A DNA stretch of 64,000 nucleotides, from positions 169,187-233,186 of the forward strand of contig OZ220708.1 of assembly GCA_965116595.1 (NCBI GenBank), given 5' to 3'. The first letter of the stretch is position 1. Every line of letters starts with the position of its first letter. Origin of the DNA: Arenicellales bacterium (GTDB lineage Bacteria > Pseudomonadota > Gammaproteobacteria > Arenicellales > Poriferihabitantaceae). The position numbers and the translations under genes were made by a program. Below are positions 51,010 through 52,592 of this stretch, in pieces. The notes below the pieces were generated by a model that saw only the letters and a program-made list of their open reading frames with translations, had not been told where the DNA came from and did no database searches.

Positions 51010-52592
51010 AGAAAACCGTAACAATAGACAACAGCGCAATTACCGGCCATGAAACTGAACTGTGGGAAATGGCCGATGCTCTGCGTGGCTCAATGGATGC
51101 GGCTGAATACAAACATGTCGTCCTCGGCCTGATTTTCCTCAAATATATCTCCGACGCCTTCGAGGAACGTCGGGCGGCGGTACTCAAGGAATGGGGCGAA
51201 GATGCTGCCGAAGACCGGGACGAATATATCGCCGAGAACATCTTCTGGGTACCGCCGGAAGCGCGCTGGGCGAATATAAAATCAAACGCCCGGAATCCCA
51301 CCATTGGCCAGGGCGTCGATACGGCTATGACGGCTGTCGAGGACGAAAACCCGGTGCTAACAGGCACTTTGCCGAAGGATTACGCCCGTCCGGCACTCGA
51401 CAAACAGAGGCTTGGTCAGTTAATCGACATGATCAGCAACATCCAGGTAGGCAACGAAGACGCCCGCTCCCGTGATGTACTCGGTCGTATTTACGAATAC
51501 TTCCTGTCGCAATTCGCGAGCGCCGAGGGTAAAAAAGGTGGCGAGTTCTACACACCGCGCTGCGTGGTCAAACTTCTGGTAGAGATGTTGGAACCGTATC
51601 ATGGCCGGGTCTATGACCCGTGCTGTGGTTCGTCCGGCATGTTCGTGCAGTCCATCGAATTCATTCGCGCACATAGCACAGGCAACGGCAATGGCGGTAA
51701 GGCTAAACGTGATATATCAATCTACGGTCAGGAGTCTAATTACACAACCTGGCGGCTGGCCAAAATGAATCTTGCCATTCGCGGCATTGAAGGACAGATC
51801 GCCCATGGTGACAGCTTTCATAACGACCGCCACCCCGATCTCAAGGCCGACTATATCCTTGCCAATCCGCCGTTTAACGTCTCCGACTGGGGCGGAGAGC
51901 GGCTCACGGACGACAAGCGCTGGCAATACGGCGCCCCGCCGAAGGGAAACGCCAACTTCGCATGGGTGCAACACATCGTCCATCATCTGGCGCCGGTCGG
52001 CATTGCAGGCTTCGTGCTGGCCAACGGCTCAATGTCGTCTGCCCAATCAGGCGAGGGCGAGATCAGGAGAAACCTGATCGAAGCGAATCTCGTGGACTGC
52101 ATGGTCGCCTTACCGGGACAGCTTTTCTATTCGACCCAGATTCCCGCCTGCCTGTGGTTTCTGGCGAGAAAGCGCAAGCGGCGGGGTAAGGTGTTGTTTA
52201 TCGACGCACGCAAACTCGGCCGCATGGTGGACCGCACTCATCGCGAACTGACCGATGAAGACATCACCCGCATCACCGATACCTACCATGTCTGGCGTAA
52301 TCACTCCCCCCTTGAGGGGGAGTCACAACCCGCCGAGCCGTCAGGCGATAGCGACTATACCGACATCCCCGGCTTCTGCAGAAGCGCGCCATTGGAGGAA
52401 ATCCGAAAACACGGCCATGTACTGACCCCCGGCCGCTATGTCGGCGTGGAACCGCAAAAAGACGATGGCGAACCGTTCGAACACAAAATGAAACGACTGA
52501 CCGAGCAACTACATACGCAACAAACCGAAAGCGCCCGGCTCGATGCCGCGATTGCGGATAACCTTAAGAAACTGGGGTTTTGGGACAAATGA
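51006..52592 (+). CDS. hsdM: Type I restriction-modification system DNA methyltransferase subunit M
   Basis: The start is at ATG 51006 (MKKTVTIDN...[32 protein letters not shown]). The AdoMet motif DPCCGSGGMF-like ([10 protein letters not shown]) and the catalytic ANPPFN are present. Confidence 0.95.
52302..52354. repeat. Family A repeat, solo copy lying in-frame inside hsdM
   Basis: cactccccccttgagggggagtcacaacccgccgagccgtcaggcgatagcga is translated as [17 protein letters not shown]. This falls between the conserved HsdM segments TDTYHVWR and [31 protein letters not shown]. Confidence 0.85.

Follow-up and report, generated by a model that had tools for sequence, protein, structure and literature searches.

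The 64,000-nucleotide window analyzed here (Arenicellales bacterium, contig OZ220708.1, positions 169,187 to 233,186) carries a type I restriction-modification (R-M) operon whose methyltransferase gene contains a short palindromic repeat that is read as protein. The gene, hsdM (50991..52592, + strand), encodes the methyltransferase subunit in a 533-aa open reading frame (ORF) with a probable ATG at 51006. The repeat belongs to a family that we call family A. The copy within hsdM is a truncated unit at 52299..52353 (+ strand), which covers codons 437-454 and has an intact hairpin 1 at 52303-52323. A first-pass annotation had seen in it a tolerated in-frame insertion in a surface loop, similar to the Rickettsia palindromic elements (RPEs), and this view is supported by the orthologues, by a repeat-free allele in a close relative (locus L004), by a low-confidence coil at the site in a structural model and by purifying selection on the gene.

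The hsdM copy is 55 nt long and is identical to the repeat at 50434-50488 at 53 of 55 positions (96%). It had been reported to start at 52302 on a codon boundary, with the frame kept and no stop introduced, and both coordinates and translation agree with this: 52302 - 50991 = 1311 = 437 x 3, so the CAC at 52302 starts a codon, and the copy is read as 18 residues without a stop. Similarity to the repeat begins slightly earlier, at the AAT of 52299, which is 3 nt before the start first given. The copy retains hairpin 1, ACTCCCCC-CTTGA-GGGGGAGT, and ends in ...GATAGCG. It is without the 3' arm of hairpin 2, without the GGTGGGGGG tail and without 39 nt that are still present in the closest orthologues, and it has no terminal inverted repeats of its own. 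The description of the copy as a solo element fits hsdM, where there is one copy; it does not fit the window, where seven further hairpin-1 copies are found, and the hsdM copy is itself truncated. No terminator-like signal, intrinsic terminator or promoter was found at the copy. A role as a transcriptional pause site, which had been suggested, is unsupported as there is no terminator-like site, and the suggested internal recombination site also finds no support, though copy number at the site varies among relatives. The simple-sequence runs of the copy are C6 and G5 only, so it does not qualify as a phase-variable contingency tract, which is recognized by a long homopolymer or short tandem repeat and by frame-switching variants. 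An intein, an intron and translational bypass were also considered and dropped, as the insert has 18 codons, no stop and no splicing motifs.

A full family-A unit of ~54-69 nt has two hairpins, of which hairpin 1 is constant and hairpin 2 variable, followed by a tail of the form G(T)GGTGGGGGG. Hairpin 1 has an 8-bp stem, ACTCCCCC/GGGGGAGT, closed by a CTTGA loop. In 125 units gathered from public genomes by the exact hairpin-1 24-mer, hairpin 2 takes 79 distinct sequences, which fall into size classes of 15-20 and 31-33 nt. Nearly all of them fold (median z -3.1 vs shuffles); the pairing of hairpin 2 is conserved and its sequence is lineage-specific. Within the window, the 23-mer CACTCCCCCCTTGAGGGGGAGTC has six matches at ≤3 mismatches. 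None are expected, and not one of 100 shuffles reached six. A looser hairpin-1 pattern recovers eight copies, seven of them between 50.4 and 54.9 kb. Six of the copies other than that of hsdM thus lie within ~2.5 kb of it, in its operon, and one lies at 16779.

The protein that carries the insert has the Pfam domains HsdM_N (E 1e-27) and N6_Mtase (E 4e-107). Both the S-adenosylmethionine-binding motif and the NPPF catalytic motif are present, and NPPF and DPCCGS are invariant across the HsdM alignment. Its best solved relative is the HsdM of M. mazei, 3KHK (E 1.6e-139). The AlphaFold model used for mapping was built on a diverse alignment of 62 sequences and has a mean predicted local distance difference test score (pLDDT) of 89.7 and a predicted template modeling score (pTM) of 0.87. 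A model from 41 close homologues, with a mean pLDDT of 48.6, was left out of the mapping. According to Foldseek, the model used superposes on 3KHK at template modeling (TM) scores of 0.78-0.86 and also on PacII M1, 7VRU_A. In it, insert residues 437-454 form a coil between helix 422-436 and strand 463-467, and the pLDDT is ~52 at residues 441-450 as against 82 and 79 in the adjoining blocks. Mapping on a structure therefore gives the kind of site that had been predicted, a low-confidence coil between two confident secondary-structure elements. That the coil lies at the surface is a model-based reading, which draws on the coil state, the low model confidence and the variability in length. The insert peptide is acidic and rich in Pro/Gly/Ser, a composition that fits a disordered loop. 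The insert lies ~40 residues ahead of the C-terminal helix 496-528, which is intact in the model. In PacII, the C-terminal tail of HsdM forms a four-helix bundle with the conserved regions of HsdS and is required for assembly (PMC9613975). As judged from the model, the insert leaves the C-terminal tail for HsdS assembly uninterrupted.

Pairwise ratios of nonsynonymous to synonymous substitution (dN/dS) for hsdM are 0.08-0.13 at a synonymous divergence (dS) of 0.38-0.91 among the window and the related loci L002, L004, L005, and L006. The hsdS and hsdR ORFs are open alongside hsdM. Since hsdR (60358..63492, + strand) is an intact ORF of 1044 aa, all three subunit genes of the operon are open. 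The low dN/dS, the invariant motifs and the open hsdS and hsdR together argue that purifying selection was kept on the methyltransferase in insert-bearing lineages. We infer that the insert does not disable HsdM.

The loop that holds the insert lies between ...TYH.WR and.Y.D.PGFC.S and was compared in an alignment of 120 HsdM homologues of 74-92% identity. The two flanks had been said to be nearly contiguous in other HsdM proteins, and this is what is found: in 50 of 124 close homologues the loop is of type 0, with 3-6 residues, and in 35 full-length representatives at 40-70% identity it has only 2-9 residues. Three clades have something else in its place. Clade A, which contains the window and its nearest relatives, has family-A peptides. 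Clade B has one to three copies of another palindromic element, read as NPSPLEGEGRVRG. Clade C (46 sequences) has a 17-19-residue peptide, NR.PSPSKEEEQGEGG, whose DNA, CCCTCCCCCTCGAAGGAAGAGGAACAGGGTGAGGGTGG, is the clade-B element CCCTCTCCC-TTGGA-GGGAGAGGG-TA-GGGTGAGGGTGG in decayed form. A similarly long peptide in orthologues free of the repeat would have spoken against an insertion; these orthologues have either a short loop or a different palindromic element. A neighbor-joining tree was made with the loop masked. Its internal branches are short and recombination is likely. In this tree clades A, B, and C each nest among short-loop lineages, and Fitch parsimony gives 'absent' as the ancestral state with five changes. 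The orthologue alignment therefore defines the segment as an insertion, the short loop being the typical and the inferred ancestral state. We take the distribution to reflect either at least two gains or one old gain that was followed by several replacements.

The 5' junction falls at the identical nucleotide in clades A, B, and C (TGGCGT/AATCAC, TGGCGC/AATCCT, and TGGCGC/AACCGT, respectively, with the slash at the junction). The site is also the sole internal position of the HsdM family with inserts of ≥8 aa, and 66 of the 124 sequences have one; length differences in other loops stay at ≤6 aa. The other disordered HsdM loop, at residues 232-237, never bears an insert in the 124 sequences. 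The junction pattern CTGGCGNAATCACTCCCCCCTTGAGG has no match in JGI metagenomes, and a peptide search with the tandem unit found nothing.

Recent changes at the loop can be followed in related genomes at six syntenic loci. In L002, the unit at the same hsdM junction is complete, with 69 nt (23 codons), and is followed by ACCAACCGCCCCACCCCTGAAGAA. When the window is aligned to it, the first 55 nt are identical and are followed by a 39-nt in-frame gap in the window. The hsdM copy is thus 55/55 identical to that of L002, while the rest of the gene is 87% identical; an identical stretch of 55 nt has P ~5e-4 under uniform divergence, and other stretches with 54/55 matches exist in conserved parts of the gene. 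Within one cluster of ≥90% identity the loop is TNTSEK without any repeat in L004, 1.5 units in L005, two units in P0123 and three in L006, so a repeat-free allele exists in a relative at that level of identity. Two of the three units of L006 have a second small palindrome nested in the hairpin-1 loop, and orphan 5'-arm fragments (AATCACTCC... and CATCACTCCCCCC...) stand ahead of complete units in several alleles. The partial duplications and deletions may be due to slippage at hairpins and C/G runs. One allele, L129, is frameshifted. Its contig has 1.43x coverage and there is a C8 run where the frame shifts; an assembly error is the probable cause. In the six syntenic loci, no allele was found to be rearranged or deleted between direct copies.

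The other copies of the operon surround two occurrences of DUF559, a Vsr-like endonuclease. The closest paralogue of the hsdM copy is a full-length unit at 50434..50502 (+ strand), with hairpin 1, a hairpin 2 of the form ACCCGC...GCGGGT, and GTGGTGGGGGG. It stands 5' of a free-standing DUF559 gene (ORF 50413..51009, + strand), and another unit (50932..50998, + strand) stands 3' of it. The G-rich GGTGGGGGG tail of this second unit (50990-50998) lies ~8 nt upstream of the probable hsdM ATG, with tail and ATG together at 50990-51008, and could serve as the Shine-Dalgarno sequence of hsdM. In L002, an array of repeat units with a nested palindrome (5504-6004) takes the place of the free-standing DUF559 gene. 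The free DUF559 of the window has a dS of 0.46 to hsdS-embedded DUF559 in other genomes and of 0.68 to the copy in its own hsdS, and is thus nearer to the former.

The specificity gene hsdS (53265..55613, + strand; 782 aa) encodes an N-terminal nucleotidyltransferase (MNT), a first target-recognition domain (TRD1), a block of repeats and DUF559, and TRD2. Four family-A units and a DUF559 domain (54381..54725, + strand) are thus held in frame between the two target-recognition domains, at 54235-54876, and the DUF559 domain is under purifying selection (dN/dS 0.05-0.23). Two tandem units (54235..54345, + strand) lie 5' of this domain. In the first of them (54238-54260), hsdS uses the frame that would meet a stop at the usual CCT TGA; the unit has the TCGA loop variant (CCT CGA), which removes the TGA and so keeps the hsdS frame open. 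On the 3' side of the domain, a unit with a short hairpin 2 (54726..54780, + strand) forms a unit-spacer-inverted-unit pair with an inverted unit (54809..54876, - strand). Both DUF559 copies of the window are bracketed by family-A units in this way. Every syntenic relative retains the hsdS arrangement, and so does a distant HsdM clade, in which an IS481 splits it. The block may represent either a nuclease fused functionally to HsdS or a selfish gene embedded there. DUF559 was also considered as a general mobilizer of family A and rejected, because it adjoins the repeat only in hsdS contexts: among the matches listed, this holds across 862 kb around 214 hairpin copies from many phyla.

The operon has further features. 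Between hsdM and hsdS lies a HEPN-like (NTase_sub_bind) gene, which is followed by the MNT domain (52831-53600). No stop codon closes this domain, whose frame continues into hsdS, and the same long ORF is present in relatives (617-816 aa). In the region 56649-60498, a 140-nt 5' fragment of hsdR is duplicated (56668-56807 vs 60359-60498, 87% identity). The two fragment copies flank an inserted block on the minus strand, in which GC falls to 46-48% and which encodes a C5 cytosine methyltransferase-like ORF (58889-59983), a 553-aa ATPase-like ORF (57241-58902) and a 138-aa ORF.

Family A is also found in the window outside the R-M operon, with a unit at 16775..16843 (+ strand) and a partial unit (48662..48705, + strand) upstream of the acyl-CoA synthetase gene; the partial unit consists of the tail, hairpin 2 and, from hairpin 1, the 3' arm. 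Also upstream of this gene there is a tandem array of three 125-nt copies at 111-nt spacing (47010-47356). A second family in the window, CGTAGGGACAGGCC...GCCTGTCC, is of the classical GTAG type and resembles repetitive extragenic palindromic (REP) sequences; its copies are at 3776, 23378, 29407, 29500, 32496, and 46997.

Beyond the window, the exact hairpin-1 24-mer occurs in at least 119 stretches of GTDB species genomes, where chance would give ~0.004 matches in 596 Gb, and in at least 100 stretches of JGI metagenomes. The hosts among the matches listed are metagenome-assembled genomes (MAGs) labeled Nitrospinota, Nitrospirales, Pseudohongiella, Kiloniellaceae, Hyphomicrobiales, Rickettsiales, Arenicellales / Ca. 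Poriferihabitaceae, Acidimicrobiia, and Acidobacteriota/Terriglobia, and several of them are complete long-read chromosomes. The exact 24-nt hairpin 1 is common to MAGs of at least five phyla, with a hairpin 2 that is lineage-specific. Ca. Poriferihabitaceae is a gammaproteobacterial family known from sponge metagenomes, and the isolate names suggest that many of the other host MAGs are sponge-derived as well. Hairpin 1 is absent from 2.9 million viral contigs and from plasmids, and thus nothing points to a phage or a plasmid as its vector. In Nitrospinota-type genomes, unit-spacer-inverted-unit pairs lie inside inverted-repeat composites of ~190 nt or more.

Among the matches listed, most family-A copies are intergenic. 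Around 13% of the 214 copies are in long open frames, and most of these are read-through upstream of real starts. A few units lie in frame in genes unrelated to R-M. The acyl-CoA synthetase of L075, an orthologue of window 48598-50394, has one at ~390-450; in L036 (~2336 and downstream) in-frame units join, and lie within, a LivG/LivF pair of ABC ATPases; and in L108 (~6942), a Rickettsiales MAG, there is one in a gene of the CCA/poly(A)-polymerase type. A search for a transposase bracketed by the hairpins gave nothing convincing, and no REP-associated tyrosine transposase (RAYT) was found among 14 hairpin-flanked ORFs in 119 loci. No target-site duplication and no parent insertion sequence (IS) was recognized in the loci examined, and the 5' flanks of more than 100 other copies have no common target motif. 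A literature search on DUF559-linked repeats and on palindromic repeats or MITEs (miniature transposable elements with inverted repeats) of sponge symbionts found no description of family A.

Several known classes of small repeats are similar to family A. RPEs insert in frame into unrelated protein genes and are translated into peptides that are compatible with the fold, and the genes stay functional (review PMC10969869). Family A does the same in hsdM, hsdS, the acyl-CoA synthetase, the ABC ATPase and the CCA-type enzyme. The family-A unit, however, has 54-69 nt whereas RPEs have ~100-150 bp, its hosts belong to several phyla (Arenicellales-like and others) and not to one genus, most of its copies are intergenic, and most of those in open frames are 5' read-through. 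Unit length, host and probably also sequence set it apart from the RPE families. With REP sequences, their REPIN doublets and bacterial interspersed mosaic elements it shares short, high-copy palindromes that are mostly intergenic and often form inverted doublets with a short spacer, as at 54726-54876 in the window. Unlike REP and REPIN sequences, it has no conserved 5' GTAG, and its units start with (A/C)ATCACTCCCCCC and consist of two hairpins and a G-rich tail. No unit-flanked RAYT or transposase was found in the 119 loci. Intragenic enterobacterial repetitive intergenic consensus (ERIC) sequences, Correia elements and cyanobacterial MITEs are small non-autonomous repeats that are able to fuse in frame with host ORFs (PMC10969869). 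Family A likewise is a small non-autonomous repeat that makes in-frame fusions; among the loci examined, no target-site duplication or parent IS was recognized for it. The ~190-nt composites with inverted ends in the Nitrospinota-type MAGs resemble REPINs or MITEs.

A further likeness is to whalefall-1 (Rfam RF01762), a candidate stand-alone non-coding RNA (ncRNA) known only from a whale-fall metagenome (PMC2864571). At the gathering threshold, Rfam has no match on the element in the window or in 18 repeat loci, and by the Rfam criterion the window units are not members of whalefall-1. Below that threshold, the unit at 54728-54781 aligns to the whole whalefall-1 model with 22.5 bits, as compared with a gathering score of 37 (E 0.015 in 4.7 kb). 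The clade-B element in the hsdM of L126 (11343-11379), which has no hairpin 2, scores 18.9 bits and is a near base-for-base match to whalefall-1 hairpin 1 and G-rich tail. Family A and whalefall-1 share a C/U-rich hairpin with a UUGR loop, a variable second hairpin and a G-rich tail (AGGGUGAGG vs GGUGGGGGG); they differ in that scores stay below the gathering threshold and that family-A units are dispersed, lie in both orientations and occur inside genes. From these sequence features we read families A and B and whalefall-1 as what may be one architectural superfamily, in which a C-rich TTGR-loop hairpin is joined by a G-rich tail and, optionally, by a variable hairpin. The orphan whalefall-1 'ncRNA' would then belong to the family-A/B superfamily of dispersed repeats.

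We consider it probable, at about 0.72, that the hsdM copy is a tolerated in-frame remnant in a single insertion-permissive loop, where selection filters frame and position and hairpin-promoted slippage reshapes the site. This explanation builds on the identity and truncation of the repeat, its status as an insertion, its location in a loop, the purifying selection on the gene, the variation in copy number and the in-frame copies in other genes. Family A would be a small, non-autonomous repetitive DNA element and the hsdM copy its remnant. One unit would have entered hsdM directly after the codon of Arg436, where a linker connects the final helix of the catalytic domain to the strand ahead of the C-terminal tail. 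Later, 39 nt would have been deleted in frame, and with them the 3' arm of the second hairpin, the tail and part of the sequence next to it. Since four of the six frames of the unit are open and the linker is flexible, normally a loop of 2-9 residues, the insert would be read as an 18-residue coil and the enzyme would not be disabled. Selection would remove copies that break the frame and copies elsewhere in the highly constrained HsdM, and survivors would therefore pile up at one site. The C- and G-runs and the hairpins would then promote slippage, partial duplication and deletion, giving the 0, 1, 1.5, 2, or 3 units seen in relatives. We propose no dedicated function for the hsdM copy.

Several observations weigh against this account. 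In it, the insert is presumed to be neutral. A pure model of random hits followed by a filter predicts neither that one and the same nucleotide after TGGCGN is the starting point of types A, B and the decayed C nor that the disordered loop 232-237 is free of inserts; the shared junction and the empty loop suggest targeting, nesting into an earlier copy, or an old insertion overwritten by gene conversion. A pure filter also leaves unexplained that seven of the eight hairpin-1 copies of the window cluster in the R-M operon. The 55-nt identity to L002 despite 13% divergence of the gene hints at constraint or conversion acting on the DNA itself.

These points lead to an alternative, which we hold to be unlikely, in which insertion is targeted or self-nesting and has a diversifying or switching role, with the hsdM loop and the central linker of hsdS as preferred landing sites. 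Hairpin-driven expansion and contraction, or recombination among the direct copies at 50434, 52299, and 54235-54726, would then modulate or switch the R-M system. Phase variation of type I systems by means of repeats is well known and provides a precedent. The 5' junction nucleotide shared by the A, B, and C elements, the use of the only position of the HsdM family with long indels and the clustering of seven of eight copies in the operon fit this alternative. The 0-3 units in close relatives, the orphan 5'-arm fragments and the palindrome nested in the hairpin-1 loop fit it too, as do the 55-nt direct repeats at 50434 and 52299, which are 96% identical. Yet none of the six syntenic loci has an allele in which the stretch between the direct copies is rearranged or deleted, and no target motif is common to the 5' flanks of over 100 other copies. 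Contingency tracts are typically longer than the C6 and G5 runs seen here, and the sole frameshifted allele, on the 1.43x contig, probably reflects an assembly error. A general filter is instead favored by the in-frame copies in unrelated genes. An extended form of the same idea, to which we give equally little credence, makes the operon of this horizontally spreading type I R-M family the vehicle that seeds a cross-phylum superfamily of two-hairpin elements, whalefall-1 included, into new genomes of the sponge microbiome; the hsdM loop and hsdS linker would be its preferred landing or nesting sites, and hairpin-driven expansion and contraction would tune or switch restriction.

It is more doubtful still that the copy is the footprint of a DUF559 cassette, that is, that a repeat-flanked DUF559 gene once occupied the hsdM loop and that, after its deletion, the 5' flank stayed behind, much like a solo long terminal repeat. 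The bracketing of both window DUF559 copies by family-A units and the presence of DUF559 inside hsdS in two HsdM clades are in line with it. So is the hairpin-2 subtype of the hsdM copy, ACCCGCCGAGCCGYCAGGCGATAGCGGGT, whose sole other occurrence among the matches listed flanks the upstream DUF559 gene on its 5' side, and so is ACCAACCGCC, which follows the hsdM unit of L002 and the 50434 unit alike. A 3' extension of the type AC(A)CAACCGCC, however, also follows units that have no DUF559 nearby. The restriction of DUF559 to hsdS contexts (862 kb, 214 copies listed) makes the repeat independent of it, and no hsdM allele with DUF559 in the loop is present among the 124 homologues and the cluster members. 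The explanation to which we assign the lowest probability is that the copy is a functional structured nucleic acid, either a whalefall-1-like RNA or a cis-acting hairpin that stabilizes the mRNA, directs processing or causes pausing, and that the peptide is a by-product. Massive compensatory variation in hairpin 2 (79 sequences in 125 units, median z -3.1), a hairpin 1 that is identical across phyla, matches to the whole model of a candidate ncRNA and a repeat that is better conserved than the surrounding gene all speak for such a structure. The hsdM copy, however, is without hairpin 2 and the tail, two of the three parts, and any role of the intact unit has therefore probably been lost there. 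The Rfam scores are below the gathering threshold, with no gathering-level match in the 18 repeat loci, and a terminator-like tail is absent. Copies are found in either orientation, as arrays, and in coding and intergenic settings that are unrelated, and relatives with 0-3 copies are under the same purifying selection.

The phenomenon as such is known from RPEs. What is new is the gene, the element family and the hosts, and the allelic series is unusually clear at a site that is used recurrently. If the tolerated-remnant explanation is true, the hsdM copy would be a clear case beyond Rickettsia of palindromic selfish DNA written into proteins, and the presence/absence and copy-number alleles in close relatives would make the process datable. 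One loop of a widely transferred type I methyltransferase would be a natural insertion-tolerant site, useful for the engineering or tagging of HsdM. For annotation, there is a warning that peptides of the type 'HSPLEGES...' and 'NPSPLEGEGRVRG' in proteins from these metagenomes are translated repeats. The orphan Rfam motif whalefall-1 would be tied to a dispersed-repeat superfamily of sponge symbionts from several phyla, and the sharing of the element across phyla would bear on how non-autonomous elements pass phylum boundaries in a common habitat.

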